Shown here piece by piece: positions 25,631 to 64,000 of a DNA stretch of 64,000 nucleotides; the stretch's first letter is position 1, and each line of letters opens with the position of its first letter. Under the pieces are notes generated by a model. That model did no database searches. It saw only the letters and a program-made list of their open reading frames with translations, and had not been told where the DNA came from. The stretch is taken from positions 25,640,912 through 25,704,911 of the forward strand of contig NC_092675.1 of assembly GCF_964355755.1 (NCBI RefSeq), in the 5' to 3' direction. Made by a program: the position numbers and the translations under genes. The DNA comes from Antedon mediterranea (taxonomy: Eukaryota; Animalia; Echinodermata).

Positions 25631-25667
25631 AAAATATGCACCTATAGAAGTTTTTAACCACATAGCA

Positions 25668-27706: not shown

Positions 27707-27856
27707 TAGCAAAAATATATACCAAACAGCTAAAACAGGAAACATACCTAAAGAAATCAACGAAGGCATATTGCATCCAATACCGAAACCAGGCAAGATA
27801 AAAGGTCCACCAAAAAACATCCGACCCATCATCCTACTGTCGGTTCTTAGGAAAAT

Positions 27857-28264
27857 CAAAGAACTTATAACACAAGAATCTCCTGTTCGTCCGAAGCGCG
27901 TAACAATTTCGAAAGGCATTGTGGGATAGAATAGAGCTATGGGTGGCGCCATTATGAGCCATGGAGTAGGGCGCCCGCATCAAATTAGAAAGTCAAAATC
28001 ATAGAGGGGTTCTGCTAATGCTCTAGGGGGTATAGAGTAATTGACTGAGGAGTAGGGCGCCCGCATCAAATTAGAAAGTCAAAATCATAGAGAGGATCTG
28101 CTAATACTCTAGGGGGTAGAGTAATTGACTTCCTAGTTTGGAGGGGGCGCTGCTCCATGCTGTGAAATGGCGTCGCCCAGTTTGACCTTTTAACCATTTA
28201 CTTCCGATACTGTGTTTTGAATGCAAATTGAAGAACAGGAGATTCTTGTGTTATAAGTTCTTTG
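27857..28264. mobile_element. P-element-like MITE
   Basis: 32-bp TIR CAAAGAACTTATAACACAAGAATCTCCTGTTC with 7-bp TSD GGAAAAT. Internal direct repeat of about 84 bp. Confidence 0.82.
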
Positions 28265-28361
28265 GGAAAATGCTAGCAATATGCTTACTAAATAGGATAA
28301 ACGACAGATTAGATGAACATGTCCCTGTAACACAGGCCGCGTATCGCAGAGGACAATGCAC

Positions 28362-28815
28362 CAAAGATTATATAGCGCCGCTACGCGGCGCAAGATAGGT
28401 AACTGTTGCCAAGCTCCTATCTTATAACACTACGCGCCCAGTAAATCCATGGACGCCATTCGGGCGGACAGGTTATTATTGTGATTTAAATGTAAATGGT
28501 TTAAATTTTGCGGTCCGCCTCGAAGTATCTGTTGTTAACCATCCTTATGATTGATTCATGGAAAAGGGAAGAAATTATGTAAACAAAGTAAAATAAAAGT
28601 TTCTTTGGGATCTGGACACTTTCCGATTAATTCTGTGTGTTTACATTTATATGTTTGGTTAGACAACTTCATTCTTTAACCGAAACATTGTGGATATTGC
28701 CTTGACGACGACTTTATTCCGGTTCAAACTTGTCCGCCGGAATGGCGTCCATGGATTACAAAGGTCTCACCCAGTTACCTATCTTGCGCCGCGTAGCGGC
28801 GCTATACAATCTTTG
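28362..28815. mobile_element. Second P-element-like MITE
   Basis: About 44-bp TIR CAAAGATT(A/G)TATAGC(G)CCGCTACGCGGCGCAAGATAGGTAACTG with a degenerate 7-bp TSD (AATGCAC/GAAGCAC). Confidence 0.75.
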
Positions 28816-31387: not shown

Positions 31388-31452
31388 GGCTCTGTAGTCT
31401 AGTGGTATGATACTCGCCATGTAAGCGAGAGGTTCGAATCCCGCCAGAGACA
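31388..31452 (+). pseudogene. tRNA-derived sequence (SINE head or tRNA pseudogene), duplicate copy with a 7-bp deletion
   Basis: Paralogue of 42687-42758 lacking part of the T stem. Confidence 0.6.
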
Positions 31453-33049
31453 TTTTTTCATACAACTAAAAAATAAAGAACTTTCGCCAATGCTCGACAA
31501 GATTATGAGATCATGTTCCGAATTATGAGCACTGTTTCTATAATTTACAGTATGATTTTTATATAATTTTCACAGTGATACGCAACACATTGATTTATAT
31601 ATATATTTGTAAATATACCGTATGTATGTATGTTTTATAATAATACAAAAAGGCGGATCATTTGGCTGCCCTATTCTCTTTATTTTTTAAGGTTTAAAAA
31701 GGCGTCTAAGAATCATTTGTAAAAAGTAAAAAAAAAAATCCTATACTCTCTCTCCCTTTCAGAACAATGGAATATTAAACAATGTTATTAGATTGCATGC
31801 TATTATTCCTAAAACAATATAATTACTATTATTAATTACTTACAGCAAGTATAATTCCATAAGTTGTTATTTTTCTTTTCATATGACTGTTACTAATTGG
31901 ATGATTTTGAACAAATTATGCTAGTTTATTGAAATTTGTTTTGTTCTTTTTATGTGGGTTTATGCAAATTCTCCAATATTTAACATTGTATAAATGTAAC
32001 AAATAAATAAGAATTAAGCAACAATTTGTTAGCTCAACTTTTTAATACAAATTTATAACTGATGTGTTATTTAGGTACTATAAATGGAAATGGAAATATA
32101 AGTAGGACACATTTACAGTCAGCAAGAAGAAAGAAGATGATGCAATATACTGTTCTGTATTGCAACCATAACCTACTCATTTACTAAGAAAAAAAAAACC
32201 CCATGAGATGGTTGGAAATTACTGTTCACATTTAATTGCTGTGTTTTGATTCTTTTTAAATTTAAACCTAATTCACTAACTGAAAATTTATAATAAGTAT
32301 TGAGTGGCATATTTAGCAATTTTCATTAAAATTTCAGAATTAAAGTTTTTCCTAATTAATATAATTATCCGGTAACATTATAACGGTTGAATTAGTGAAT
32401 CTATGTATTATTTGCTATTGTCTTGCTATGCCATTATTATTGCATTATTTCAAAATCAAACAACTGATAAATCTGGAATGGCACATGCCATACATCTTTA
32501 TTTATATAAAAGTTAGGCATAATTAGTAAAATGTCATTACCAACATAATGTTATTAACCCAAAGAATCTAGAATCATTGTACAGTGTTACTGTGCTTGTG
32601 TTGATATTGTATCTAATACTCCCAACAACAACAACAAATGTTTTTTACGCGTTTCAAGTGAGTATATAGTCAACTTAACATGTAAATACTGCTAAACTAA
32701 TAAATAGTGTAATTTATTATACTGTTAAATACATTGTGAATACACAAACATAATCAAAGAATGGATGTCAACGACTTCCGATGATGATTCTATTTAACAT
32801 CAAAGTTGGAAAAAACTAATATTAACAACCACTTCCTGTAAATCCGAAGACGGATTTGCAGCAAATTATTGTTATTATATTAATATCTTTCAGATACATT
32901 GTGTAGTTTATATTCAAATAGCAGAAGCAAGATAGAAATAAAGTGTTTATAAGCAACTTAGACCTCTGTTCTGTACTCTTACTTGTGGTACCTGTATTCT
33001 TAATAAGCTCTCCGTCCTGGTTAGGCCCTATATATGTATTTGGTAATAA

Positions 33050-33920
33050 GATTCAAGAAGATTCAAGATTTAAGAAATTGTATTGCTCCGTTTAAAATGG
33101 AAATTCATTTTGCTTGGGTGGCATAATTAAGAAAATAATAGACAATAAAAATACAAGAAAAATACATCAAATTGCATAAACACTTAGGCCAATGTTAACA
33201 TACTATTAGAACTATTAAAAATCATTAAATTTTAAAATAAATCTTACAGTATAAAGTTATCGTCGAACACATATGAATGCTATTTACAACAAATGAATTC
33301 CTAGTTCTATTTAGATTGGCTGTTGGTGGTCGTAGTCTAATCTATTAAACTTGTAACAGTTGGATGGGGTCTTTCTTAAGATACACTTCTCGTAAATTAG
33401 TGATTAGATTAGTTAGATCTGCTTTAATGATACGTTGCGCAATTTTACGTGGTCTCTCTATATTTTTCTTATCTTTTTCATTATAATATGATATACCTCC
33501 ATGAGGACGTACTGCCAACAGAGATGCGGAGGTATCAAGAGACGATGTGGCATAACAGTAAAAATAATTATGCAACGTTTTCAGAAAGTTAAGCTCATCA
33601 TTAAATAGCCATGTTTCTTGCAAACAAATAGCATCAAGTCAAGAATCTCCTTCTGTCTAGACTTTAAGTTCTTACAGTTATACGAAACTACTCGGGCATC
33701 ACAAGTTTGGTGTACAGCCATGACTAGTCAGTATAGTTAAATCAGGAGTATATTGCTTATCTTTCAAACCTATTCTAGGCTCATAATATTTACGAATGAT
33801 GGCATTAGCATGCTAGATCGACGGATCAAGTATATTATCTCTCTATATTTAGCATCGCAGCTCACAATGAAAGAAACATATTCGACACTTTAACAGCCAA
33901 AGCACTCACTTGCAGTGACT
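33050..33920 (-). mobile_element. Internally deleted, decayed CR1/L2-group LINE (APE endonuclease start fused to 3' end); duplicated at about 44360-49330
   Basis: LQETWL and RPHGG endonuclease motifs (ORF 33345-33623) run directly into C-terminal-like sequence, with a (TCTTGAA)n-like tail. Confidence 0.6.
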
Positions 33921-34289
33921 GCTCAACGGACCTATTTCCAAGGTATAGACAAAAAGGACCTGTTTTATTAGTTCCACGTTGCGACATTCTGCGGTTGTAG
34001 CGTGGTATAATTATAATGTCCAAACAACTAGATAAAAGGCATCCTTATCGTCGTTTCTTTCAACATAAAATCCATTGAATACGCAATGTCATTAATAAAA
34101 AACTTTTGCAAGGCCTAATGTTTATGTGTGCTAAGACTTTCAGGAACGGAAATAATATAAAGAACAAATAGTCTTTAAAAAGAAACTATTTCTTGATACA
34201 CATTTTTATTAAATATCGGACAACTTTCTTCTGAACAATCTTCAGACATTTAACGCCTATTAAAATAACCACTTAGCCAAAATTAAGCA

Positions 34290-35325
34290 TTTAGTAAAAA
34301 ACAGCATTGACCAGTACGAAGTTCCAATAACCTGTAGTGACTCCACAGTACACCTGCACCGGGATGCATTGCCACTGGGATGCATTCTTTTTTCCCTATT
34401 AGGTTAAGGCAGAAACTATAGAGGGTGTGAATCAACACATAAATATTCATGATGTGACGGCAAACCCTGGAAATAGTTTTCAAACGGTAACCGAAAATGA
34501 TCTCTCGTCGCGTTGCTAGGAAAGCTGCTGCAAAAACATTCACCAACCGTGTAGCCGCACCTACGTACGTATAGTATTAAACATTGTAATGTAGTGCAAA
34601 TGAATTTGATTAAGAACTAATTGGCACTAAAATAACTGATAAAATACTTTTATTGCAACTTTAGGGTTGAATTATACAAAATGACATACATGTTTAATAT
34701 TAGTCTGAACGTTGTACTTTCAGACATAATGAATTATTCCCTATAATATACATGGGAATATCTTTGGCACTGCTAATGCAAAAACAAAATAATTAAGAAT
34801 AAAAACATTATAATAATAATATATGTTGCTTATGTTTATGAAATATTTATTTTTTTGACATCCAACAATGTACATTATTAAATGAATTAATTAAAACTCA
34901 CACATAATCTTAGAATCAATTGTGATTATACAGGTTTAATTATATCATAGCTAGGCCTACATATTAACGGATTCTGCCAAAAAAAAGGAAAGACAATTAA
35001 TTCATCAACGCGACAACATCATACCTCCATGTTCAGGCTATTTAGGCCTAATAGCTAGCGTACGATGTTCGTACGCTACGGCTCTTTACCAGCTATGTAG
35101 CAGGTCTAGTGTCTTTAACAACAACATTGTATGACGTCATGAGCTCAGGCATGCATCATGAATATTGATGATATACGTACGCCCTCTATAGCTTCTGCCT
35201 TAACCTAATAGGAAAACAATAATGCCACCTGGATCAATCTTTGATGTTGGTTCAACTATTGTCACGTGTTCTGCAACCGCTAGAAATGTAGGAAGTTGTT
35301 CGTTTGTTGTCCATGTCATAGGTCA
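34290..35325 (+). pseudogene. Orphan, fragmented HYR exon relic upstream of gene C; duplicate at about 49720-50757
   Basis: 34295-34378 (AACAGCATTGACCAGTACGAAGTTCCA...ACACCTGCACCGGGAT) and 35230-35325 (ATCTTTGATGTTGGTTCAACTATTGTCACGTGTTCTGCAACC...GTCCATGTCATAG|GTCAG) match the two halves of an HYR2 exon. Confidence 0.75.
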
Positions 35326-35478
35326 GAGAATTGATTCAGGAAGATTTTGTTAACAGATGTAAACGTTGTGTTATGTATAAACACGAGTTTACTGAATAAT
35401 CATATTCATACCTATACATACTTCGTAGGGCCTACATTAAATGAAAGTCACACTTTTCCTGTTGAACATTCTTACAAA

Positions 35479-38400
35479 ATGTTTTCGTCAGTATATACCA
35501 TTGTCTGTTTTATGACTTTTCTGCATATGTCGCAATCCAGAATCATTTCATCATGCTATGATACGTTCGAATTAGGTAAGTTATCCTATATCTATTTTCT
35601 CAATCATCTAATTTTATGTACAAATTTAAATAAACAATCGGGAATCAAAATCCAAATTGCGTAACCAATTAACACAGTTTAGTAATAATACTTATATTGG
35701 ACGGTTAAGTTAGGTAACGTTATCCTTAAATGTATTGTATTAGGCTGCTAAATTCATTTATTTCCATCATCATCTAAAGTAAAACAAAAACAAAACCCAA
35801 AACAAAGGAGAAATGAAGTGTTGTAATAAGTATCAACTAATGGTTTAGAATGAATGGTTTAGTGACTTATAGGCCGACACATTGTATTACACGATTTTAG
35901 TCTCCTGTAAAGTATATACATTCTTCTTAAATATTAACAGCGCGATACATAATTTCCAAACTATAACTTTATTGTTCCGAAATTTAACAACGTAAATAGG
36001 TAATTTGGAATGGAAAGAGTGGCAGAATTTCAAAACTTGGATGACAAATGGATTGTCTGTCGTTGGGACGACAGTTAAAATACGCTGCATTTTCAAAATG
36101 TTTACCTTTTAACACAATGCTCATTATGAAAATGTACCATTGATGAATATATAATAACTTTTAAAACGTTGATCAAAATTGTTTAGTGTCAGAGTTCAAA
36201 GAAGCAAGACAAATTTCAAGATATAATGTAGATGCTTTTTCTTCACACGCGGCTGACGGTGGAATAGATGGAACGTACAAGAAACGTTCATGCACGCACA
36301 CACGTAAGTGATAAATTGCAAAATGTTTTAACGAATTATCTATTTTGTAGGATTTTATACATATTCATATAACATAACAATACGTGTAGTAACGTATTTT
36401 TAAGAGCATCGACGGCATGTAAACCATTTCAAAATAAATAGTTTCTAATTCAAACTTTCTTTTCGATCGATCGCAAAGACTTCAGCGCAACGCAGAATAT
36501 AGGAATTGACCAATGACATTCGACTGCTCGAATAATCCGTCAAATCCGTGATGGTATTTTTGTCGTATTTTATGTAATGTAGGCCTAATTGATATTTCTT
36601 TCATTAAAGTTTTAGAGGATAGTACGTGGTGGTATGTTGATCTCGGAACAGAAACAGTAATTTCAAAAATTGTTATATTTAACAGAGACGATTGTTGTGG
36701 TAAGAAGATTAAATATCATATTTGAGTGATTTTTTACTCGGTATTATTCTGAATTCTATTATATTACGTATACTCTAATTTCTATTGCATGCGTGTAAGG
36801 TACACTTTCGTTGAAGAGTTTGTATCTATCCAATTGGACTTCTTGTACCAGTGGTCTAATGGTGGATTCCGAGTTCAAATTTCTTCTCACTCTCTCTCTC
36901 TCCCTCTCTTTCCCCCATATTTCCTCACTTTAGCGTTTAAATTATAAAAACTTTAGTTTATTTATAGGCTTATAATATATATATATATATTATATATAAA
37001 TCAAAGAGCTGCATAGGCAGGATATAGAAAAAAATCAAGATCAAATAAGTTAAAACTGCCTCAATATAGATTTATTTTAACGACATGTTTCGGGCATAGC
37101 CCATCATCAGGTGAAAAGAATTGTAACAAAGGATAACATATATAAGTCACAAAATTACATAATAAAACAAATCAGCCAATCAAAGATGTTAACAAACAAA
37201 AGGCATAGTTATAAAGGCACACCTCCAAAAGCTATGGTGTACGAAGCAGGAATGGTTGCTTATAAAGCAGGAAATTTAAAACAAAGACAAAAGCTTCAAG
37301 TGTAAATAATTGTTAATATGTGAATGTCTCTGGCAAAATTAATGTTTAAAGGATCTAAATTGTACATTTATGCCGGTAGGGGCAAGAGTGCCAAGCTTTA
37401 CAATTATTCTTTCTTCTATAATTCTATGAGATGTCTCAGAACCATTACATACTTTAACACCAGAAATTGTAATATCCGAAAGGGAATGCTCATTATTACA
37501 AAAATGGGTGGCTACAGGTAATCCGGGAGTCTTTAGTTTAATAGACCTTAAATGTTCTACAAACCTATCACCTAACCTGCGTTTAGTTTCACCAATATAA
37601 AGCATATTACATTTAGTACACGAAATACAATAAACTAGATTTCTAGTGGTGCACGTAATACGATCTGTGATAACATAATTACCAGAAGGTCCTACTATTT
37701 GGTTTGAACATGAAACGTAATTACATGTCGAACATCTATTTCTATTACATTTGAATATTCCAGTTGATTCATTACCTTTGTTTTGTAATTTAGATTTAAC
37801 TAAAGTGTCTTTAATGCTTTGATCACGTCTGTAAGCTATCATGGGTGGTTCTTGAAAAATATCTTTTGTAGCGGATTTATCTTCAGTCAAAATTGAAAAG
37901 TTATCGCGGACAATGTTAATAACCTTCTTATTCATAGGATGATACGTGAGGACTAGAGGTATGCGGTCACAAGCATTTGTATTACGTGTAGGTTGCAATG
38001 TGTCCTCGTGCGTTAACTGGCAAACTTTTCTTAGAGATTTCACAGTAATGTCAGATGGATATTCGCGTGCATTGAAAAAATCGATCATCTCAGATGCTTT
38101 GATGTTAAAGTCATCATCATCGCTACATAAACGTCGAAGTTGCGAATACGGTATAGCATTCTTACAAGCTGGAGGATGCGAAGAGTTGTAATTTAGATAA
38201 GTGTGCGCGTCAGTATCTTTGTAGTGGACGGATGTAGAAAGACCAGGTTTATCAATAGATAAACTAATATCAAGGAAAGGCACACACTTGTCAGAAATTT
38301 CATGAGTAAACTTTATAGCAGGATGAAAATTGTTCACGAAGTTAATGAACTCATTAAGTTCATCTAAAGTTCCCGACATAACACCAACACAATCATCAAT

Positions 38401-38537
38401 ATACCGTTTGAATAAATCTGGTTTCTTTCCCTTAAAATCTCGTAACACATTCTGCTCAAAATACCCCATAAAGAGGCAAGCAAAGTTAGGTCCCATTTTT
38501 GTACCCATGCTTATCCCAGAAACTTGCCGAAAAAACT

Positions 38538-38574
<37 letters not shown>

Positions 38575-41500
38575 ATCATTAAATAAGATAATTTATTTCA
38601 GTTTTGTACTTTTTGCATATTTTCAAATGTATATCACTTGCTCGTTGTATTAACCTGTAGTTCTTTCTTTATTTAAGCGGATAGATTATCAGGAGTAGAG
38701 GTTCGTGTTGGCAATAGTCAAGTTTCGCCCTTTTTTAGTAATGCACAATGTAGATCGACTATTTCACGAATGAATGCACTTTTGCATTTTGTGTTTTTTT
38801 TTGCCTAACGCATGGTAATGTTACTGGTTATTAACAGTGAGTTGTTTGTTTTAAGCTGAGAGGTTAGCAGGAACAGAGGTTCGTGTTGGAAATAACAAGG
38901 CTCCACCGTTTTCGGGTAATGCACAATGTGCATTGACTATATCACGAATGGATGCAATCGCAAGAAACCCTATAGAGATGTCATGCAACCCACCTATTTC
39001 TGGGCGGTATGTCACTGTATATAAACAGATTAGAGGATATCTTACCTTATGTGAAGTAAAGGTTTACAAAGGTGTGTACATGGTAATAAAGCTTTCGCTA
39101 TTGTTGCTAAACATCATGTGTACACTTAGACAAATCACATGTTTTTCCACCAAGGTTTACAGAAATCTACGCTGATTCTAATTTCAAAATCACAATTTTT
39201 ACTGCGCATTTCCTAAATATGACCATATCAAAAAACGAAATTATCAAAATACTGTGTACATCAACAATAAATTAATCCTAAATCATTTTTTTTTAATAAA
39301 AGGGCTTTACTTCATTTTTTTTTCAAATCGAGATTGTTTGAGTATTTGATTTGACTAGTATAATTTATGGTATGACCAATATATAATGAATCAGCTTTAT
39401 ATTAGCGGGTACGATTCTCAGATGAAAAGTTTCTTTGATTAAATTTGTGTTTTTGCAAATATAAAACATGTGAAACTACGTGGAATATTTTATATTGATA
39501 TACTCCTAAAAACCAGAATACTACCTGTACATTGAAAAACAAAAACGCGTTTTGGTCAAAAGCGACATTTTGTAGATAAGCTCCTTTTCAACATCGGTCA
39601 GCATAGTTGGGCCTATTTTTATTTTCATTTATTATATTTCTTGTTATTGATCTTCATACAATAAAACCAATAGGTTCAAAAGAAGGAATGTAAACCTCTG
39701 TCATTATCTTTATAGACATTGGAAAACCTAAAGTTATGTGTCCAGATGATATAGTGGTAAATGTTGATAATAATCAGACTTTACATCAAGTTAATTGGAA
39801 TCCTCCTGACGTTTCTGATAATTTCCATACGGATCTTTCGGCAATCTGTTCACCGTCATCAGGTTCTTTATTTCCAGTCGGATTCACCAAAGTTACTTGT
39901 TTAGCTTCTGACGCAACTGGAAACCAAGGAAACTGTTCATTTGTTGTAAATATTGCAGGTCAGGTCAACTATTTATTATTTATAATAATGTATTGTCAAT
40001 ATAATCTGTATGTATTGGTATTTGTTTAACATATATATTTTTCTATATTTGCGATATTTTATATCGTATACATGTCAATTTAATCTATAGGTATGTGTAT
40101 TTGTTCAATATATATACTTCTATATATTTTTATATATTTGCAATATGTTATACCGTAAATACAAATTGTAAGTAGTAGTTGTACTAAGATGACATCGGGT
40201 ATGAAGCGTCTCACATACACACAGAGCCAACATTGCATCTTGGACTTGCACAGTGTATGGACTCTAACCTTACGGTTTCCATTAAATATACCATTTCATG
40301 CTATCATTCTAAATAACTAACTGTACTTTCAACCTATTGCATTCATCTTTTTTTCATTCCATCCATCTTATCTTGGTGAAAAGGGAGGATACTACATTTT
40401 CCTCCCCTGAGTTTATAGCCTCTCTACTCGAACACAAATAAGAACACAAATAAGATAGTTTAACAAGAAAATTTTAATCATGTATTTTACCGCCATTTTT
40501 CATTTCTACATTTAAATTAACATCGTATCTAAAATTTTAAATGAGAAAATGTATTGTTAATACTGAATTCTGGCATCTTATTATGTAAATATACCGGTAT
40601 TTTAACTACTCTAAACACTTACTTTTAATTGTCACAAATGTACTTATATGTATATAATATATTCATCAATGAGAATTTAAATAAACGTGAGAAGAACTCA
40701 CACAAGACAAAAAAAAAATAATGTATTGCGGAATTACAGAGGCCAACTAGCTAGGCATCCATATATGACGTTCGTTCTTATCGTGGTTTCTTTCAACATT
40801 TTCAATTCATTGAATACGCAATGTCATAAATCAAAACTAATTGATAGGCCTAATTTTTATGTGTGCTAAGACTTTCAGGAATGGAAATAAGAACAGATAG
40901 TCTTTAAACAGAAACTATTACATTTTAAATAGACACTATCCAGAAATTAAAAAAATATCGGACAACTTCCTTCTGAACAATATCCAGACACCTAACGCCT
41001 ATTAAAATAACCACCTAGCCTAAATTAAGCATTGAGCCAAGCTGTTTTTGTGGTAAGAGCAGCTAAGTTACTCAGTACGCCGGGGATCAATTTATTAATT
41101 ATAAGTCTTATTTGCACATCGTAATAATATATTATTATTGTATATTAGATAATAAACAACCAGACTTAATCTGTTCCAAACATAATAGTAAAAAAAAACA
41201 CATTGAAGAATAATAATGAAGAAAGAACTATGATCCAAACTGTAGTTGGGCATAAAGGTACAAGTTGTTTGTTTTTTCAGATGATAGAGAACCTGACCTC
41301 ATTTGTCCTGAGCATATCACGGTGGGCAACAATACTGACCAGTACGAAGATCCAGTAACCTGGAGTGACCCGACAGTGACTGACAATTTGCATAAAGACA
41401 TATCAGCAACATGTACACCTGAATTGGGATCAATCTTTGACGTTGGGTCAACTATTGTCACGTGTTCTGCAACGGATGATATTGGAAATGTTGGAAGTTG

Positions 41501-43475
41501 TTCATTCGTTGTCCATGTCATAGGTCAAACATTTATTTCTTGTAAGCATAATATTTATCAATACTTTAAAGAGCTTAATTTTTTAAATTAATACTGTTAT
41601 ATCTCTTTTCGCTATTCACCGTGTCCGATAACGGGCTTAGGATCAAAATACGTATTATATGTGTATTTGTATGTTCTTCAGATAATAAGGAACCAGATCT
41701 AGTGTGTCCTGAACCTATCATAGTTAACAACAGCACCGACCAGTACGAATATCCAGTCACCTGGAAGAACCCCATAGTAACAGACAATTTGCTTAACGAT
41801 ATATCAGCAACTTGCACACCTGCATCGGGATCCATCTTTGACGTTGGTTCAACTATTGTCACGTGTTCTGCGACAGATGGTACTGGAAATGTAGGAAGTT
41901 GTTCATTCGTTGTCCATGTCATGGATCAGACATATCTTTCTGGTAAGCACTGACTGGCATAACTTTTAACAGTACGTTAAACACTTATGTTGATGACTGA
42001 TATTAATTGTAAGCAATAGCAAGAGAAAAGTAGACATTCATAACAATTCAATTCTACTGATTACTAGGCCTATCATCATTTTTATTGCATCATGGTTTTC
42101 CTTATTATTGGCATTATGAAATACATTTAGTTAGATAAACCTTTTTTAAAATTAAATTAAATTCACATATACAAATTATTATATCCAACCCTTAATACTC
42201 AATATTTAAGTTGATTTTAAAACGTAGGTTACTTAATCAAACTGTGCAGAATATTTTAATGACTTAAAAGATTGAATATTCTTTTAAAAGCTGCGTGGCA
42301 GGGCAGTTGATTTATCATCAGCCTACCTGTACATGCGCAATATTCTCAACATGAAATGGAAGGAGATTATGCACAGCACAAACATACGAAATTAACAAAT
42401 CAATGGAAGGGTACTACACTTATTGAACAGTATATGACATATTTTAAAATGTTGTTATAGGTTATTCTGATGAGGGCCATGAATTTATTAGCGCTAGTGG
42501 TCAAGTAGCAATTCTCGTAGTCCTATGTATACTCGTTGCTAATTTGGTATTAGCTTTAATTGTGGTTGTCAGGTACAGTACTATTCTGTTATTTTCATTA
42601 TTTTCAATTTTGATTAAAGCTTTTGAATTGTTGAAAGTTCAGAGAGGATGTATCTGGTGGGTGAAAATCTATGATAATATCATAATGGCTCTGTAGTCTA
42701 GTGGTATGATACTCGCCCTGTAAGCGAGAGGTTGCAGGTTCGAATCCCGCCAGAGACATTTTTTCATACAACTAAAAAATAAAGAACTTTCGCCAATGCT
42801 CGACAAGATTATGAGATCATGTTCCGAATAATGAGCACTGTTTCTATAATTTACAGTATGATTTTTATATAACTTTCACAGTGATACGCAACACATTGAT
42901 TTATATATATATTTGTAAATATACCGTATGTATGTATGTTTATAATAATACAAAAAGGCGGATCATTTGGCTGATCTATTCTCTTTATTTTTTAAGGTTT
43001 AAAAAGGCGTCTACGAATCATTTGTAAAAAGTATAAAATGAAAAATCCTATACTCTCTCTCCCTTTCAGAACAATGGAATATTGAACAATGTTATTAGAT
43101 TGCATGCTATTATTCCTAAAACAATATAATTGCTATTAATAATTACTTACAGCAAGTATAATTCAATAAATTGTTATTTATTTTCATATGACTGTTTTAA
43201 CTAACTAATTAAATGATTTTAAACAAATTAGGCTAGTTTATTGAAATTTGTTTTGTTCGTTTTATGTGGGTTTTTATGCAAATTCTTCAATATTTAACAT
43301 TGTATAAATCTAACAAATAAATAAGAATTAAACAACAATTTGTTTTTAATACACATTTAAAACTGATGTGTTATTTAGGTACTATAAATGGAAATGGAAA
43401 TATAAGCAGGACACATTTACAGTCAGGAAGAAGAAAGAAGATGATGCAATATACTGTTCTGTATTGCAACCATAA
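35479..43475 (+). CDS. Gene C: FTP - 3xHYR - TM receptor with tyrosine-motif tail, about 491 aa
   Basis: Exons 35479-35575, 36187-36303, 36610-36699, 38856-39071, 39716-39958, 41281-41523, 41682-41942, 42461-42572 (TM VAILVVLCILVANLVLALIVVV) and 43379-43475 (RYYKWKWKYKQDTFTVRKKKEDDAIYCSVLQP*). The 1476 nt are in frame if the acceptor at 38856 is used. The H-x26-R-x-D-x4-R motif is intact. Confidence 0.8.
36990..38540 (-). mobile_element. 5'-truncated Penelope-like retroelement (RT plus GIY-YIG endonuclease) inserted in a (TA)n tract
   Basis: ORF 37339-38508: MGTKMGPNFA, RYIDD, FLD, CxxxRCxxC, VYCISCTKC..YIGETKRRLGDRFVEH. Flanked by TA repeats. Absent from the gene D paralogous intron at about 52410-52465. 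Confidence 0.93.
37075..37117 (-). ncRNA. Minimal type I hammerhead ribozyme in the Penelope terminal region
   Basis: Minus strand reads UUUUCAC-CUGAUGA-U-GGGC-UAU-GCCC-GAAAC-AU-GUC-GUUAAAA: conserved core, stem II, very short palindromic stem III, and stem I with one mismatch. Confidence 0.75.
42687..42758 (+). pseudogene. tRNA-like sequence (TGT at the anticodon position, Pro-like body); probably a SINE head or tRNA pseudogene in the TM-tail intron
   Basis: GGCTCTG/CAGAGAC acceptor stem, A box TAGTCTAGTGG, CTCGC-CCTGTAA-GCGAG anticodon arm and B box GGTTCGAATCC. It has C instead of U33 and stem mismatches. Confidence 0.65.
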
Positions 43476-46029
43476 CCTACTCATTTACTAAGAAAAAAAA
43501 CCCCCATGAGATGGTTAGAAATTACTGTTCACATTTAATTGCTGGGTTTTGATTCTTTTTAAATTTAAACCTAATTCACTAACTGAAAATTTATAATAAG
43601 TATTATAGTTTCAGATTGGCATATTTAGCAATTTTCATTAAAATTGATTTCAGAATTAAAGTTTTTCCTAATTAATATAATTATCCGGTAACATTATAAC
43701 GGTTGAATTAGTGAATCTATGTATTATTTGCTATTGTCTTGCTATGCTATTATTATTGCTTTATTTTAAAATCAAACAACTGATAAATCTGGAATGGCAC
43801 ATGCCATACATCTTTATTTATATAACAATTAGGTCTAATTTGTAAAATGTCATTACCAACATAATGTTATTAACTAAATGAATCTAGAATCATTGGACAA
43901 TGTTACTGTGCTTGTGTTGATATTGTATCTAATACTCCCAACAACAACAACACATGTTTTTTTATGCGTTTCCAGTGAGTATATAGTCAACTTAACATGT
44001 AAATACTGCTAAACTAATAAATAGTGTAATTTATTATACTGTTAAATACATTGTGAATACACAAACATAATCAAAGAATGGATGTCAACGACTTCCGATG
44101 ATGATTCTATTTAACATCAAAGTTGGAAAAATACTAATATTAAAAACCACTTCCTGTAAATCCGAAGACGGATTTGCAGCAAATTATTGTTATTATATTA
44201 ATATCTTTCAGATACATTGTGTAGTTTATATTCAAATAGCAGAAGCAAGATAGAAATAAAGTGTTTATAAGCAACTTAGACCTCTGTTCTGTACTCTTAC
44301 TTGTGGTACCTGTATTCTTAATAAGCTATCCGTCCTGGTTAGGCCCTATATATGTATTTGGTAATAAGATTCAAGAAGATTCAAGATTTAAGGAATTGTA
44401 TTGCTCCGTTTAAAATGGAAATTCATTTTGCTTGGGTGGCATAATTAAGAAAATAATAGACAATCAAACTACAAGAAAAATACATCAAATTGCATAAACA
44501 CTTAGGCCAATGTTAACATACTATTAAAACTATTAAAAATCATTAAATTTTAATATAAATCTTACAGTATAAAGTTATCGTCGAACACATATGAATGCTA
44601 TTTACAACAAATGACTTCCTAGTTCTATTTAGATTAGCTGTTGGTGGTCGTAGTCTAATCTATTAAACTTGTCATTAGGAAAACGAGCCCTATTTAACGT
44701 GAGCTTTTAGTACCCCGGCTAACCCGGGGTACTATAATTGCCTGTAATTGTTTTGACCCTGATCAGTCTTGTTGATGGGTAATTAACAGAACAGTGGCCA
44801 TCAATCATGCAGGAAAGTATCTGGGTACTAAAAGAAGCCAAGCCCACTTTGTTTGCCAACAGCCAATCACCGACAGCATCAGGTTTCAGTTACAGCATGT
44901 TTTTTAATGATTAGGTAATAGTTTGATTTCATGAAATAAATGAATATTTATAAAATAGCCTTTTCACGCCTTATAATTATTTAAGTAAGCCTTTATTTCC
45001 ATGTTTCCTTTTCGATTTTGTACATTTTAACAACATTGTATGGGGAGCTACAAAGTTCAACCTTAGATTGAGTAGTCAAGCGATCAACCAATTACAATTA
45101 AATAATTTTAATTTTATTAATTTACCAATGAAATACATAGCCTACTACAAATGGATTCTGAAATAAACTGGGATGGTGCGATGGGATTTGGTAGGGATGT
45201 CAAGAGGTACACCATCACATCAGACTCGGGCTGAGGTATAGGCAGGGAGTTGTTATTAATAACAACTCCCTGGTATAGGTAGGCCTACAATTTTTGAGAA
45301 TATGAGCGGGAAATTCAAATAAAATAATGTAGCCGTAGGGGGTGGTACCCATACGCTTCCCAAAAAGTGTTTGCGCTATATTAGTATATAGGACCAGATA
45401 TATGAATTAATTAATAATACTAAAAAATCTAAAAAATAAATCTTTTTATTTAAAAAAATGTAATTGAATGAATGTTAATAAACATAAACGAAACCTATAT
45501 AAATAACAATCTTTTTTATTGTGTAACAAGTTGATGTTATACGATATTATAATAGAGGGATTATGCCTCATTTTAGTTGTTTATGTTATTCTAAGAAAAC
45601 TGCACATAGGCCTACATACATTATGTTCACTTTAGCACTCTAGTATTTTAAAACATTGATGACTAGCAATTATACACGCCCGGGCGGGTTTCCTATGTAG
45701 TTTTAAAACTTCACAGTACATTCCCGATCATTTGATAACTCATTATGCAGATGCCCTAAAATGCACCCACCTCCCCAACACACACCCGCACTCGGGGATT
45801 TTTTAACTTATAATGTTAAACTTCCTGGTACAAATTCTATTGCAAACCCCGGCTCTATGACGGTTTTCAAATGCAGTTAAAACATACCCCAGTTCACATT
45901 ACTCATGTGGTCATTGATACTAACCCCAGCAAATCACTAAGCCTCCAACCCCTCTAACCTCTGCACACTGTGATTTTTTTAAATATAGTTTAAAACCTTC
46001 CCAGTACAATTGTGGTCATACAATCACGA

Positions 46030-46790
46030 AATATTGTGCTACCTACATTTGAGAAAGTGTGCAATCCATTAAAAAATTGTGCTCCTCTTTGAGAAATTGT
46101 GCTACCTTTTTGAGAAATAATTGTGCTAACCATTCGGGAAATTGTGCTACCTCTTTGAGAAATTGTTCTACCCATTCGGGAAATTGTGCTACCTCTTTGA
46201 GAAATTGTGCTAACCATTCGTGAAATTGTGCTACCTCTTTGAGAAATTGTGCTAACCATTCGAGAAATTGTGCTACCTCTTTGAGAAATTGTGCTAACCA
46301 TTCCGGAAATTGTGCTACCTCTTTGAGAAATTATGCAATCCATTCGGGAGATTTTGTGCTACCTCTTTGAGAAATTGTGCTAACCATTCGGGAAATTGTG
46401 CTACCTCTTTGAGAAATTGTGCTAACCATTGGGAAATTGTGCTACCTCTTTGAGAAATTGTGCTAACCATTCGGGAAATTGTGCTACCTCTTTGAGAAAT
46501 TGTGCTAACCATTCGGGAAATTGTGCTACCTCTTTGAGAAATTGTGCTAACCATTTGGGAAATTGTGCTACCTCTTTGAGACATTGTGCTAACCATTCGG
46601 GAAATTGTGCTACCTCTTTGAGAAATTGTGCTAACCATTTGGGAAATTGTGCTCCCTCTTTGAGAAATTGTGCTAACCATTCGGGAAATTGTGCTACCTC
46701 TTTGAGAAATTGTGCAATCCATTCCGAAAGTTGTGCTACTTCTTTGAGAAATTGTACGTACGGTATACCTATTTGAGAAATTGTGCTATC
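46030..46790. repeat. Minisatellite with a 42-bp unit made of two related 21-mers
   Basis: Alternating GAAATTGTGCTACCTCTTTGA and GAAATTGTGCTAACCATTCGG, degenerate at both ends. Confidence 0.95.
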
Positions 46791-46941
46791 TTTTTCACGT
46801 TTTTTCATCCCCTTCATAATCCATATTCCTATATCTTACCATGCACCAACTCATTCCAAATGTTAAAGGATACAAGATAATACTGTGACGGGATTTAATA
46901 TTATGTGCCAACAATACTTTATCGCATTATGCAGGTTCACA

Positions 46942-47676
46942 TTTTTAGTCGCGTGGACGCGACTCTATAGTTCACTATGTCGGTCGGTCGGTCTGTCTGT
47001 CTGTCGGTCCGGTATCACTATGCATGTTATCGCTTTCTGACCTTATCTTGATATCAGTTTAATCTAGCTAAGTCAATTTTTCACAGTATATTCCTTATGG
47101 CCAGGAATCGATGTGGTTATGTTTTCACGGTGCGCAATAAAAAATTACGCGGTCTACGCACGATTTAACGAAATCACGTTTGTAATCATATCTTCACAAC
47201 CATGAATCACAATTAAATAAAATTTGGTACTCATAAATTTCAGGGCATAAATCATTATATGGCAATACAATTACGTGCGTAGCGCATGTAACGCATGCGT
47301 ACGCGCGCTTAAAATTTTCAAAATTTATTTTCGATGAAATAAGAGTACGTTTCAGGCAATTTTAAGGGTTTACAAAATTGCCATGAGTGCGCAGATTTTT
47401 GCGCGCGCACTGTGCATTAAATGTTATTGCGCACTCTTTTTGGCCGATTTCTGTTTTCTTGACTTACTTTTCAACTAGAAATTACGTTATATGAGCACGT
47501 CAAAAGTGACAGGCTACGCACGTGTAAATTAAAAAAATATAAATGTTTTTAAACATTTCAACATTTTTACACATGTTCAGTAGTTCACTATGTCGGTCGG
47601 TCTGTCGGTCTGTCTGTCGGTCGGTCCGGTATCACTATGCATTGTAGCACGCGACTTAATGGCTGTTGGCCTTGTT
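46942..47676 (+). mobile_element. Helentron-associated (DINE-1/HINE-like) non-autonomous element
   Basis: Inserted in a T-run. Subterminal inverted repeat AGTCGCGTG / CACGCGACT, an adjacent 5' inverted copy, a duplicated core with (GTCG/GTCT)n microsatellite, and a short GC-rich 3' hairpin. Confidence 0.7.
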
Positions 47677-50600
47677 TTTTAACGGACAGGAATTTTTTAA
47701 GAATATATACTCTATAAAATTTAATTCAAATTAGGCCCATAATATATGTTTACATGGCAATTGTTAATTTTCAAATTTCAAACATGCACATACAGATTTT
47801 ATTCAGTGTATTAATTACAGTATCTGATTTTTTAGTTAATCGTTAAAATAATGATATCCTGGCCTATAACAAAAATGTTCCATCTGTAACATTAACAACC
47901 ATTTTTTAATATTTACTTAGACCTAATCTATTGATTACAATTCAGGAGTTACAAATTAAGAGTTAACATTTTTGGTATCATTACTTCACACAACTTAGAC
48001 AAACAAATGTCACATTAATGTGAAAAAAAAACTGAACTATTATGTATTGAGAAAAACATAAATATATATTTCCTCCATAAATGTGCATACAATTGGGGTA
48101 TACTCAAGAAAAGGGGTTTATAATTGAGACATAAAGTAACTATTATATAAAATATGATTATAAAATACAGTATTTAATTGTTTGCTTATAATTTGAAATA
48201 GTATTACTGTACTATTTATTATACTCCCTCTAATGTTAAATATATAGGCCTATTATAGGCCTATATATTTAACATTAGAGGGGTGGCAAATCCATAGAGA
48301 TCATTTTGAGATCTCAGCTGAAGAACATGAAATAGTTTATAAATATAGTTTTAATTTCAAAACAAAAGTTTTTGCTTTTCCAGCGATTTTAGTCTGGGTG
48401 CACAAAACACAAATTTTTAATTTAAACTCATCTCTACAGTTCATTCTTGGCTCCCTGCTGTTAGATTAGAACTGACCTTGCTAACCACAAGGCCACTTGC
48501 ATTCTTTAATTTTGTGTGCAAAAAATTTACCCATGGTATAATGGTGGTTTCTAAATACAATGAGTGACCAATTCCAAAATAGGCTGTGCATTGCAGCCAA
48601 TCAGAAGCAAGGAAGGCTGAGCCTGGAAGATGAACAAGGTGTTACGTGATTTATTAATTGCCTAAGACATTAATGACTGGCTTTAGGCAAAAATAAACAA
48701 GTAAGATGCCAGAGGCAAAAGCTCACGCTAAATAGGGCTCGTTCTCCTAATGTAACAGTTGGATGGGGTCTTTCTTAAGATACACTTCTCGTAAATTAGT
48801 GATTATATTAGTTAGATCTGCTTTAATGATACGTTGCGCAATTTTACGTGGTCTCTCTATATTTTTCTTATCTTTTTCATTATAATATGATACACCTCCA
48901 CGAGGACGTACTGCCAACAGAGATGCGGAGGTATCAATAGACGATGTGGCATAACAGTAAAAATAATTATGCAACGTTTTCAGGAAGTTAAGCTCATCAT
49001 TAAAAAGCCATGTTTCTTGCAAACAAATAGCATCAAGTCAAGAATCTCCTTCTGTCTAGACTTTAAGTTCTTACAGTTATACGAAACTACTCGGGCATCA
49101 CAAGTTTGGTGTACAGCCATGACTAGTCAGTATAGTTAAATCAGGAGTATATTTATTATCTTTCAAACCTATTCTAGGCTCATAATATTTACGAATGATG
49201 GCATTAGCATGCTAGATCGACGAATCAAGTATATTATCTCTCTATATTTAGCATCGCAGCTCAAAATGAAAGAAACATATTCGACACTTTAACAGCCAAA
49301 GCACTCACTTGCAGTGACTGCTCAACGGACCTATTTCCAAGGTATAAACAGAAAGGACCTGTTTTATTAGTTCCACGTTGCGACATTCTGCGGTTGTAGC
49401 GTGGTATAATTATAATGTCCAAACAACAGAGTCCAACTAGATAAAAGGCATCCATATTATATGTGACGTTCGTTCTTATCGTCGTTTCTTTCAACATAAA
49501 ATCCATTGAATACGCAATGTCATTAATAAAAAACTTTTGCAAGGCCTAATGTTTATGTGTGCTAAGATTTTCAGGAACGGAAATGATATAAAGAACAAAT
49601 AGTCTTTAAAAAGAAACTATTTCTTGATACACATTTTTATTAAATATCGGACAACTTTCTTCTGAACAATCTTCAGACATTTAACGCCTATTAAAATAAC
49701 CACCTAGCCAAAATTAAGCATTTAGTAAAAAACAGCATTGACCAGTACGAAGTTCCAGTAACCTGTAGTGACTCCACAGTACACCTGCACCGGGATGCAT
49801 TGCCACTGGGATGCATTCTTTTTTCCATATTAGGTTAAGGCAGAAACTATAGAGGGTGTGAATCAACACATAAATATTCATGATGTGACGGCAAACCCTG
49901 GAAATAGTTTTCAAACGGTAACCGAAAATGATCTCTCGTCGCGTTGCTAGGAAAGCTGCTGCAAAAACATTCACCAACCGTGTAGCCGCACCTACGTACG
50001 TATAGTATTAAACATTGTAATGTAGTGTAAATGAATTTGATTAAGAACTAATTGGCACTAAAATAACTGATAAAATACTTTTATTGCAACTTTTGGGTTG
50101 AATTATACAAAATGACATACATGTTTAATATTAGTCTGAACGTTGTACTTTCAGACATAATGAATTATTCCCTATAATATACATGGGAATATCTTTGGCA
50201 CTGCTAATGCAAAAACAAAATAATTAAAAATAAAAACATTATAATAATAATATATGTTGCTTATGTTTCTGAAATATTTATTTTTTTGACATCCAACAAT
50301 GTACATTATTATTATTAAATGAATTAATTAAAACTCACACATAATCTTAGAATCAATTGTGATTATACAGGTTTAATTATATCATAGCTAGGCCTACATA
50401 TTAACGGATTCTGCCAAAAAAAAGGAAAGACAATTAATTCATCAACGCGACAACATCATACCTCCATGTTCAGGCTATTTAGGCCTAATAGCTAGCGCAC
50501 GATGTTCGTACGCTACGGCTCTTTACCAGCTATATAGCAGGTCTTGTGTCAACAACATTGTATGACGTCATGAGCTCAGGCATGCATCATGAATATTGAT

Positions 50601-50909
50601 GATATACGTACGCCCTCTATAGCTTCTGCCTTAACCTAATAGGAAAACAATAATGCCACCGGGATACATCTTTGATGTTGGTTCAACTATTGTCACGTGT
50701 TCTGCAACCGCTGGAAATGTAGGAAGTTGTTCGTTTGTTGTCCATGTCATAGGTCAGAGAATTGATCCAGGAAGATTTTGTTAACAGATGTAAACGTTGT
50801 GTTATGTATAAACACGAGTTTACTGAATAATCCTATACATACCTGTACATACTTCGTAGGGCCAACATTAAATGAAAGTCACACTTTTCCAGTCGAACAT
50901 TCTTACAAA

Positions 50910-53900
50910 ATGTTTTCGTCAGTATATACCATTGTCTGTTTTATGACTTTTCTGCATATGTCGCAATCCAGAATCATTTCATCATGCTATGATACGTTCG
51001 AATTAGGTAAGTTATCCTATATCTATTTTCTCAATCATCTAATTTTATGTGCAAATTTAAATAAACAATCGGGAATCAAAATCCAAATTGCGTAACCAAT
51101 TAACACAGTTTAGTAATAATACTGATATTGGACGGTTAAGTTAGGTAACGTTATCCTTAAATGTATTGTATTAGGCTGCTAAATTCATTTATTTCCATAA
51201 TCATCTAAAGTAAACTAAAAACAAAACCCAAAACAAAGGAGAAATGGAGTGTTGTAATAAGTATCAACTAATGGTTTAGAATGAATGATTTAGTGACTTA
51301 TAGGCCGACACATTGTATTACACGATTTTAGTCTCCTGTAAAGTATATACATTCTTCTTAAATATTAACACCGCGATACTTGTCATAATTTCCAAACTAT
51401 AACTTTATTGTTCCGAAATTTAACAACGTAAATAGGTAATTTGGAATGGAAAGAGTGGCAGAATTTCAAAACTTGGATGACAAATGGATTGTCTGTCGTT
51501 GGGACGACAGTTAAAATACGCTGCTTTTTCAAAATGTTTACCTTTTAACACAATGCTCATTATGAAAATGTACCATTGATGAATATATAATAACTTTTAA
51601 AACGTTGATCAAAATTGTTTAGTGTCAGAGTTCAAAGAAGCAAGACAAATTTCAAGATATAATGTAGATGCTTTTTCTTCACACGCGGTTGACGGTGGAA
51701 TAGATGGAACGTACAAGAAACGTTCATGCACGCACACACGTAAGTGATAAATTGCAAAATGTTTTAACGAATTATCTATTTTGTAGGATTTTATACATAT
51801 TCATATAACATAACAATACGTGTAGTAACGTATTTTTAAGAGCATCGACGGCATGTAAACCATTTCAAAATAAATAGTTTCTAATTCAAACTTTCTTTTC
51901 GATCGATCGCAAAGACTTCAGCGCAACGCAGAATATAGGAATTGACCAATGACATTCGACTGCTCGAATAATCCGTCAAATCCGTGATGGTATTTTTGTC
52001 GTATTTTATGTAATGTAGGCCTAATTGATATTTCTTTCATTAAAGTTTTAGAGGATAGTCCGTGGTGGTATGTTGATCTCGGAACAGAAACAGTAATTTC
52101 AAAAATTGTTATATTTAACAGAGACGATTGTTGTGGTAAGAAGATTAAATATCATATTTGAGTGATTTTTCACTCGGTATTATTCTGAATTCTATTATAT
52201 TACGTATACTCTAATTTCTATTGCATGCGTGTAAGGTACACTTTCGTTGAAGAGTTTGTATCTATCCAATTGGACTTCTTGTACCAGTGGTCTAATGGTG
52301 GATTCCGAGTTCAAATTTCTTCTCACTCTCTCTCTCTCCCTCTCTTTCCCCCATATTTCCTCACTTTAGCGTTTAAATTATAAAAACTTCAGTTTATTTA
52401 TAGGCTTATAATATATATATATATTATATATAAACAAATCAGTGCAAAGAACATATATATATATAAAATATCATTAAATAAGATAATTTATTTCAGTTTT
52501 GTACTTTTTGCATATTTTCAAATGTATATCGCTTGCTCGTTGTATTAACCTGTAGTTCTTTCTTTATTTAAGCGGATAGATTATCAGGAGTAGAGGTTCG
52601 TGTTGGCAATAGTCAAGTTTCGCCCTTTTTTAGTAATGCACAATGTGCATTGACTATATCACGAATGGATGCAATCGCAAGAAACCCTATAGAGATGTCA
52701 TGCAACCCACCTATTTCTGGGCGGTATGTCACTGTATATAAACAGATTAGAGGATATCTTACCTTATGTGAAGTAAAGGTTTACAAAGGTGTGTACATGG
52801 TAATAAAGCTTTCGCTATTGTTGCTAAACATCATGTGTACACTTAGACAAATCACATGTTTTTCCACCAAGGTTTACAGAAATCTACGCTGATTCTAATT
52901 TCAAAATCACATTTTTTACTGCGCATTTCCTAAATATGACCATATCAATTGTAAAAAACGAAATTATCAAAATACTGTGTACATCAACAATAAATTAATC
53001 CTAAATCATTTTTTGATAAAAGGGCTTTACTTCATTTTTTTTTCAAATTGAGATTGTTTGAGTATTTGATTTGACTAGTATAATTTACGGTATGACCAAT
53101 ATATAATGAATCAGCTTTATATTAGCGGGTACGATTCTCAGATGAAAAGTTTCTTTGATTAAATTTGTGTTTTTGCAAATATAAAACGTGAAAATGTGAA
53201 ACTACGTGGAATATTCTATATTGATATACTCCTAAAAACCAGAATACTACCTGTACATTGAAAAACAAAAACGCGTTTTGGTCAAAAGCGACATTTTGTA
53301 GATAAGCTCCTTTTCAACATCGGTCAGCATAGTTGGGCCTATTTTTATTTTCATTTATTATATTTCTTGTTATTGATCTTCATACAATAAAACCAATAGG
53401 TTCAAAAGAAGGAATGCAAACCTCTGTCATTATCTTTATAGACATTGGAAAACCTAAAGTTATGTGTCCAGATGATATAGTGGTAAATGTTGATAATAAT
53501 CAGACTTTACATCAAGTTAATTGGAATCCTCCTGACGTTTCTGATAATTTCCATACGGATCTTTCGGCAATCTGTTCACCGTCATCAGGTTCTTCATTTC
53601 CAGTCGGATTCACCAAAGTTACTTGTTCAGCTTCTGACGCAACTGGAAACCAAGGAAACTGTTCATTTGTTGTAAATATTGCAGGTCAGGTCAACTATTT
53701 ATTATTTATAATAATGTATTGTCAATATAATCTGTATGTATTGGTATTTGTTTAACATATATATTTTTCTATATTTGCAATATTTTATATCGTATACATG
53801 TCAATTTAATCTATAGGTATGTGTATTTGTTCAATATATATACTTCTATATATTTTTATATATTTGCAATATGTTATACCGTAAATACAAATTGTAAGTA

Positions 53901-63903: not shown

Positions 63904-64000
63904 GTCAAACATTTATTTCTAGTAAGCAATACTTGAAACAACTTAACAGTCCTAACTTAGACAATTTCGTATTTATATGTAATGGTAGAAATATAATATT

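Follow-up and report, generated by a model that had tools for sequence, protein, structure and literature searches.

Vertebrate inhibitory receptors carry immunoreceptor tyrosine-based inhibitory and switch motifs (ITIM and ITSM), together written as (V/L/I/S/T)xYxx(I/L/V), and the source of these patterns warns that such motifs occur by chance (PMC11460946). At least 32 human receptors have tandem motifs, which favour two-point binding of SHP1/2 (PMC8631942). A different site is that of the human adaptor Cbp/PAG (PAG1), whose peptide ISAMpYSSVNK binds the SH2 domain of Csk with a dissociation constant (Kd) of 0.5-1 uM (PMC5071372); Cbp has nine tyrosines and two palmitoylation sites beside the membrane, and Csk is conserved across animals (PMC3492796). 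For the kinase c-Src, the preferred residues are Ile/Leu/Val at -1, Asp/Glu/Ser/Gly at +1 and Phe at +3; the consensus peptide carries Asp-Glu at -4/-3 (PMC10065799). Sorting signals of the YxxPhi type, bound by AP-2 mu2 and AP-3 mu3A, tolerate Val at the hydrophobic position Phi "to a lesser extent"; mu2 favours Arg/Pro at the second X, and acidic residues near the tyrosine are associated with mu3A and lysosomal signals (PMC2133128). In this work, we describe the motif EDDAIYCSV in the cytoplasmic tail of one gene, called C, in a window of 64,000 nucleotides from Antedon mediterranea (NC_092675.1, positions 25,640,912 to 25,704,911). The window holds five tandem paralogues, A to E, interspersed with retroelement remnants.

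Placed beside these systems, the C motif is not an ITIM, and its closest measured counterpart, by analogy, is the Csk-binding peptide of Cbp/PAG. We give about even credence to the reading that the tyrosine is a change private to the C/B lineage and likely a by-product without a signalling role.

The tyrosine of the C tail and its relatives

The tail is encoded at the 3' end of C by the following features.

42461-42572, plus strand: C transmembrane exon, 112 nt, phase 1 to 2; 62.5% identical to D, 97.3% to B
43379-43475, plus strand: C last coding exon, 31 cytoplasmic-tail codons and a stop; identical to the end of XP_071954245.1
43437-43463, plus strand: EDDAIYCSV motif, with the Tyr codon TAC at 43452-43454

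The last exon follows an AG acceptor, joins the transmembrane exon in phase 2 and translates as (R)YYKWKWKYKQDTFTVRKKKEDDAIYCSVLQP followed by a stop. The transmembrane exon encodes a hydrophobic span without a charged residue, and the tyrosine lies 25 residues past it in both the exon model and XP_071954245.1, on the cytosolic side by predicted topology. The tail has 32 residues, a single distal Tyr motif and no juxtamembrane Cys.

The first-pass annotation had treated the tails of A (14360-14444) and D (58053-58137) as homologous to that of C, with Ser in place of the tyrosine. Both points hold. The DNA alignment scores 65, compared with 14+/-7 for shuffled sequences, and was reached by none of 1000 shuffles; at the protein level, the score was reached by 0/2000 shuffles, or by 5/2000 with YYK kept fixed. 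The Tyr column is Ser (AGC) in both A and D. The four-way comparison of A, B, C and D is correct in its sequence facts, but the four copies represent only two lineages, A/D and B/C. An extension of the A/D tail into a further exon through a cryptic donor (GAAG/GTGATG) was considered and dropped, as the RefSeq protein of D ends in WKILE, like the model; the frequent Trp in the column after the Tyr position (7/10 of the tails other than C) argued against it too.

A wider comparison covered 11 aligned tails: C, A, D, E, six further Antedon proteins (P0011, P0061, P0013, P0021, P0063 and P0023) and one from Anneissia (P0020). P0019, whose annotated ending could not be aligned, and the isoforms P0012 and P0062 were left out, and B was not counted separately from C. 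All the family tails have a basic juxtamembrane run, then an acidic stretch, then hydrophobic-Ser/Thr-Trp. The Tyr column holds Tyr in C alone (1/11), Ser/Thr in 9/11 and Asp in 1/11. Among the ten other tails, the next column, Cys in C, is Trp in 7, with one Phe, one Leu and one gap. All ten have at least two acidic residues at -5 to -1, seven have a hydrophobic residue at -1, and five have one at +3. As the acidic and hydrophobic context is inherited, a single residue change, Ser/Thr to Tyr, completes the motif. Among the sequences seen, the tyrosine is private to the C/B lineage.

The conservation on which the motif was to stand or fall leans against it, with Tyr in 1/11 family tails and no sure orthologue from another species in the comparison. 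A tail search of 5.8 billion proteins returned only C (1/1 candidates), a blank of a kind that is weak evidence, and in a set of 211 proteins, a profile built from transmembrane and tail sequence picked up no further homologous tail. Two further searches were set aside: a profile search of cluster representatives was dominated by long HYR or lectin repeat proteins, and an ESM Atlas search gave only short membrane proteins at up to 0.90 (LIME1 0.80), which is chance level.

Two observations concern other sites of this kind. Casein kinase 1 phosphorylates Ser/Thr with Asp/Glu at -3, and judged by this consensus the Ser/Thr column, with Asp/Glu at -3 in several tails, could be such a site. P0014 and P0026, encoded outside the window, are other crinoid HYR membrane proteins, in whose longer tails several tyrosines stand among acidic residues; both are stronger candidates than C for signalling through tyrosine.

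As to motif class, "ITIM-like" does not describe the site. Like ITIM and ITSM receptors, C is a single-pass protein with a cytosolic Tyr and Val at +3, where I/L/V is expected; it differs by Ala at -2, as the first-pass annotation rightly remarked, where an ITIM has V/L/I/S and an ITSM has Thr, by its one distal Tyr and by a motif that is not family-wide. A pattern scan of the C tail found no ITIM, ITSM, immunoreceptor tyrosine-based activation motif (ITAM), hemITAM, dileucine, NPxY or class I PDZ pattern. The proposed Src-family phosphorylation site is matched in its upstream half (acidic residues, Ile at -1) but not downstream (Cys at +1, Val at +3). The idea of Csk docking gains some support from the Cbp/PAG peptide, with which C shares Ala at -2, a hydrophobic residue at -1, a small residue at +1, Ser at +2 and Val at +3; this likeness (YCSV and YSSV) is a resemblance to one ligand and not a profile score, and no homology is claimed. 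Cbp/PAG1 is a palmitoylated adaptor with nine tyrosines, whereas C has a lectin-HYR ectodomain, no juxtamembrane Cys and one distal Tyr. The alternative of a YxxPhi endocytosis signal agrees with the pattern, the tail being short and having Tyr with a hydrophobic residue at +3, but Val is the least favoured tolerated residue at Phi, and Ser stands at the second X in place of Arg/Pro, so that both are second choices.

The first-pass annotation also drew on paralogue B, in which a stop was said to remove exactly this motif.

32103-32105, plus strand: TAG in the B tail exon (CAG in C), unreached with all exons included
30104-30320, plus strand: B lectin exon 3, 217 nt compared with 216 in C and D; frameshift and early stop inside the exon

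The substitution itself is real, position 32103 of B being T where 43407 of C is C, but 22 of the 31 exon-encoded residues would go with it, far more than the motif. As an argument for the motif, the truncation falls away, as the upstream frameshift in 30104-30320 ends the frame well before the TAG, which is therefore never read when all exons are included; the RefSeq protein of B, XP_071954528.1, has 155 aa. The TAG would then be later decay. Skipping of exon 30104-30320 would hold the frame (all phase 1) yet lose much of the lectin domain. Between B and C, the transmembrane and tail exons have four differences other than the stop, all amino-acid changing and too few to test.

Apparent recombination, possible pairing and probable transcription of C

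Judging by its exons, gene C appears to have been assembled from two sources.

35479-35575, plus strand: C exon 1, predicted signal peptide; 100% identical to D
36187-36303, plus strand: C F-type lectin exon 1; 99.1% to D
36610-36699, plus strand: C F-type lectin exon 2; 98.9% to D
37339-38592, minus strand: open reading frame (ORF) of a putative Penelope-like retroelement in C intron 3, so named from a weak GIY-YIG match under the Pfam cut-off
38678-38781, plus strand: cut copy (4a) of the third lectin exon; acceptor intact, read-through stops at about 38806
38856-39071, plus strand: C F-type lectin exon 3 (4b); 5' end B/E-like, 91.7% to D, 95.4% to B
39716-39958, plus strand: C HYR1 exon (PF02494); 99.2% to D
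41281-41541, plus strand: C HYR2 exon (PF02494); 98.5% to D
41682-41942, plus strand: C HYR3 exon (PF02494); 92.7% to D, 98.9% to B
30481-41544, no strand assigned: tandem unit U1, with the B HYR, transmembrane and tail exons and then the 5' half of C; blocks of 95-98.5% identity to U2
41545-55254, no strand assigned: tandem unit U2, with the C HYR3, transmembrane and tail exons and then the 5' half of D

Nine exons form an open frame of 498 aa with GT-AG introns, provided that copy 4a is skipped; the RefSeq model of C has 244 aa, running from HYR2 onward without a signal peptide. Exons 1-3, HYR1 and HYR2 are 98.5-100% identical to D, whereas for HYR3 and the transmembrane and tail exons the identity to B is 97-99%, and the last two reach only 60-62% with D. 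The gene spans the junction between U1 and U2. From these identities, C looks like a recombinant copy for which one unequal crossover would be sufficient.

Similar patches are seen elsewhere in the array. The first ~75 nt of the third lectin exon of D (52573-52788) match copy 4a of C and the remainder matches 4b (38856-39071), as if copies 4a and 4b had recombined. Near 30481, the sequence of B switches directly from an E-type intron to the one preceding HYR3, and B has a single HYR exon; this is likely a deletion or recombination junction. In A and D, the tail exon and downstream sequence (14320-16387 and 58013-60083) are 96% identical, compared with only 78% in the transmembrane region (14072-14243 and 57474-57645); judged from these identities, another swap point lies inside the transmembrane-tail intron.

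The pair formed by C and D recalls the paired glycan receptors Siglec-11 and Siglec-16, whose genes likewise lie side by side, encode nearly identical lectin ectodomains but tails that differ, and have a broken copy close by (PMC5701461). The lectin domains of C and D are sisters in the tree (98/98), and the two genes do combine near-identical ligand-binding regions with different tails, in one assembly. In contrast to the Siglec pair, D shows no activating feature, and the C-D identity may come from a one-off duplication and not from repeated gene conversion. The tails of D and A have no tyrosine motif (no ITAM), and their membrane spans no charged residue.

Probable evidence of transcription comes from sequencing runs. 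Five contain the stretch, none of them recorded as RNA, and contigs of four were compared; one sample, X1, is probably RNA, and contigs drop variants. An X1 contig of 1237 letters covers 43377-44188 with two other letters and one gap, and HYR exon 41329-41540 with 29 other letters. The 111 letters between these pieces are the number expected for the final HYR base and the 112-nt transmembrane exon together, less the AG that is shared, and C HYR3 differs from HYR2 in 31/212 letters of that covered part, as well as in the last base. The contig looks like a transcript in which HYR, transmembrane and tail exons are spliced together, where the presence of the middle exon and the identity of the HYR are judged from lengths and counts. 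Its differences in the tail stretch, at 43545 and 43667, both lie in the 3' untranslated region, and the CAG and TAC codons are intact. An internal acceptor at the CAG/TAG (43407-43409 and 32103-32105) was rejected, as the contig continues through to 43377, so that the acceptor at 43379 is used there. A contig of sample X3 covers 43361-44672 with zero differences, and this sample may be the assembly source and not independent. Among the matches listed, contigs over the 5' half of C have D-type differences; hence only one assembly shows a D-type ectodomain joined to the Tyr tail. No piece among the matches listed fits U1 (B tail and C 5' half), which, with 4463 pieces beyond those listed, is not evidence of absence; nor is the X1 depth of 0 in the bin 36014-36370 given any weight.

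Explanations of the tyrosine

In the reading to which we give about even credence, Ser/Thr changed to Tyr and Trp to Cys in the C tail, with inherited flanks completing YxxV, and unequal crossing-over in the array would have joined a D-type ectodomain to this rapidly diverging tail. Outside the cell, fucosylated glycans would be the ligands of the receptor, its tail mainly fixing membrane topology. The transmembrane and tail sequence of C forms the longest end branch (1.22, median 0.26), one without a firm place in the tree, and over 63 codons of this region C and D differ by 0.49 nonsynonymous (dN) and 0.53 synonymous (dS) changes per site, as loose constraint would give. Although private, the tyrosine need not be recent, given that longest branch.

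How often chance would supply such a site depends on the null. In 100,000 shuffles of the C tail, a distal YxxPhi appeared in 24% and Yxx[VIL] behind at least three acidic residues in 0.3%, under a null that disregards the inherited acidic and hydrophobic context. Drift was also simulated from the D exons with stops forbidden (5000 runs per setting, at 0.25 and 0.5 changes per site), and any distal YxxPhi arose in 3.8-9.2% of runs. For about eight tail lineages, our own arithmetic puts the chance of at least one distal YxxPhi at roughly 27-54%. Chance is a fair explanation for some YxxPhi across these lineages, and less so for one as good as that of C.

Several results weigh against an incidental tyrosine. 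In the simulated runs, Tyr fell in the exact column in only 1.2-3.3%, and Yxx[LIV] with at least two acidic residues arose in 0.5-0.9%. A dN/dS near 1 may reflect adaptive change equally with loose constraint. The frame stayed open in only 4-13% of neutral simulation runs, the C-D length differences are in frame and the membrane span stays hydrophobic; as the frame was kept open against neutral odds, selection has probably acted on the C tail lineage, which was probably maintained as coding. Contigs of two samples carry an intact Tyr codon. P0020 (Anneissia japonica XP_033105153.1), the nearest Anneissia tail and, at 45% identity, among the closest to C, has Asp at the Tyr column and ends there; with GAC presumed for this Asp, TAC is one change away, and the tyrosine might be older than it appears. 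The site is also similar to a Csk ligand of measured affinity and to the upstream part of the Src consensus peptide.

This last resemblance underlies a tentative and on balance doubtful alternative, a functional dock of the Cbp/PAG type, in which lectin clustering would lead to Src-family phosphorylation, binding of the Csk SH2 domain and damping of Src, with C and D a pair of the same ligand specificity and different outputs. The alignment of DDAIYCSV with ISAMpYSSVNK at -2, -1, +2 and +3 (PMC5071372), the presence of Csk across animals (PMC3492796) and the taste of c-Src for Ile/Leu/Val at -1 behind Asp-Glu at -4/-3 (PMC10065799) speak for it, as do an open frame despite divergence and the gap between five ectodomain exons at 98.5-100% identity to D, with sister lectin domains, and the transmembrane and tail exons at 60-62%. 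However, Cys at +1 and Val at +3 are not the Asp/Glu/Ser/Gly and Phe of Src, C lacks the palmitoylation sites and further tyrosines of Cbp, and neither the tail search nor the 11 tails gave an orthologue with the Tyr. In addition, D has no activating feature, such as an ITAM or a charged membrane residue, and recent tandem duplication alone explains the identity of the ectodomains. The fuller history, in which a family Ser/Thr became a Csk-docking Tyr in one step and recombination then placed it onto a D-type fucose-binding ectodomain, we regard as unlikely.

Sorting is quite unlikely. Here, YCSV in its unphosphorylated form would be bound by an adaptor mu subunit, and C would be carried with its glycan cargo to endocytosis or lysosomes. 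An uptake role would suit a lectin. C does have a YxxPhi, in a short tail and near the C-terminus, and acidic residues near the Tyr are associated with mu3A and lysosomal signals (PMC2133128). Against it, Val is less tolerated at Phi and Ser replaces Arg/Pro at the second X (PMC2133128), the acidic residues lie at -3 to -5 and do not adjoin the Tyr, and a distal YxxPhi is present in 0/10 other family tails (P0063 has a juxtamembrane YYKL). The least probable alternative is that C is a decaying recombinant copy that yields little or no full-length receptor, which would leave the motif inconsequential in this haplotype. The retroelement in intron 3, the cut exon copy with a live acceptor leading to a stop, the RefSeq model that begins only at HYR2 without a signal peptide, the broken twin B and the D-type contigs over the 5' half, among the matches listed, are in keeping with decay, but the 498-aa model has nine open exons and GT-AG introns, its lectin motif is undamaged, and in the X1 contig a HYR exon is followed by the intact tail at a distance that fits the transmembrane exon.

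The receptor array and its meaning

The window is AT-rich animal DNA (26-40% GC). Each paralogue is built from a predicted signal exon, three F-type lectin exons, HYR exons (PF02494), a transmembrane exon and a short tail exon, and the other members of the array lie as follows.

6971-14444, plus strand: paralogue A; its tail exon (14360-14444) encodes the same protein as the D tail, and from 7881 as far as the tail it has open exons and GT-AG introns
19574-32171, plus strand: paralogue B, with a frameshifted lectin exon, one HYR exon, and C-type transmembrane and tail exons
50910-58137, plus strand: paralogue D, with signal, lectin, four HYR and transmembrane exons and a Ser-Trp tail (58053-58137)
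60317-64000, plus strand: 5' part of paralogue E, which extends past the window end

For D, the 10-exon model gives exactly the protein XP_071954522.1 of Antedon mediterranea, B matches XP_071954528.1, the 3' half of C matches XP_071954245.1, and E matches XP_071954524.1, whose tail is of the Thr-Trp type. Near-identical duplicate pairs are A/D (95.8% over 2.1 kb) and B/C (94.9% over 2.2 kb).

In the review of F-type lectins, as excerpted, the domain is found with CCP, C-type lectin, pentraxin, FA58C and transmembrane partners, HYR not being among those named (PMC5712786). The domain found here is homologous to eel agglutinin (1K12) and striped bass FBP32 (3CQO), and it differs from them by its fusion with HYR repeats and a membrane-spanning segment, encoded in a tandem gene array. 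D matches both structures (3CQO, E 8.5e-39; 1K12, E 1.3e-21), its lectin exons are 92-99% identical to those of C, and PF00754 and PF22633 are precomputed for it. The triad of His and Arg-x-Asp-x4-Arg, with an adjacent Cys-Cys, is present in C, D, B and E; in C it reads His, 26 residues, RDDCCAER, unlike the spacing of 24 given for the fucose triad in the review text (PMC5712786). On these grounds, C is a predicted fucose-binding F-type lectin-HYR membrane receptor. P0011 and P0063 are without the His of the triad, and P0011 also without the last Arg, hinting at changed or lost sugar specificity inside the family. No description of this crinoid F-type lectin-HYR receptor family was found among the papers listed, at the level of titles and abstract openings.

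Several other elements were seen in the window. A tRNA-Thr(TGT) was predicted by ARAGORN at 42686-42759 (plus strand), within the transmembrane-tail intron of C, with a decayed copy near 31390-31450 and a 3' flank common to 57750-57872. DNA depth over 42440-43153 is hundreds of times that of the flanks, so this tRNA is probably the head of a tRNA-derived repeat. The introns of A and B hold reverse-transcriptase ORFs of the long interspersed nuclear element (LINE) type, and fragments, at 10185-11513 (minus), 28797-29924 (plus), 21001-21549 (minus) and 22230-22679 (plus), the first two matching RVT_1. A 333-codon open frame rich in Gln/Thr/Pro/Val, with no Pfam match, at 1693-2694 (plus) is probably an exon of an unrelated neighbouring gene, and self-comparison revealed tandem repeat arrays at 46027-46795 and 3994-4536, with units of about 42 nt and 180 nt.

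With regard to how such motifs are read, if a neighbouring copy is already broken upstream, a stop codon within it says nothing for regulation, and one residue change in an inherited acidic-hydrophobic frame can yield a tyrosine motif that merely looks convincing. By the alignment columns, the same Tyr change would turn the site of P0061 into a strict ITIM and that of E or P0013 into an ITSM-like one. If the tyrosine of C did arise in one step as a signalling site, the two neighbours C (signalling) and D (non-signalling) would be an example of paired glycan receptors in an echinoderm, without Ig domains or ITIMs, and if it docks Csk, the locus would be a small, testable case of the gain of phosphotyrosine signalling and of the origin of paired receptors outside vertebrates. 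For the family as a whole, it is plausible that this F-type lectin-HYR array, which swaps ectodomains and tails, serves self/non-self recognition in crinoids.

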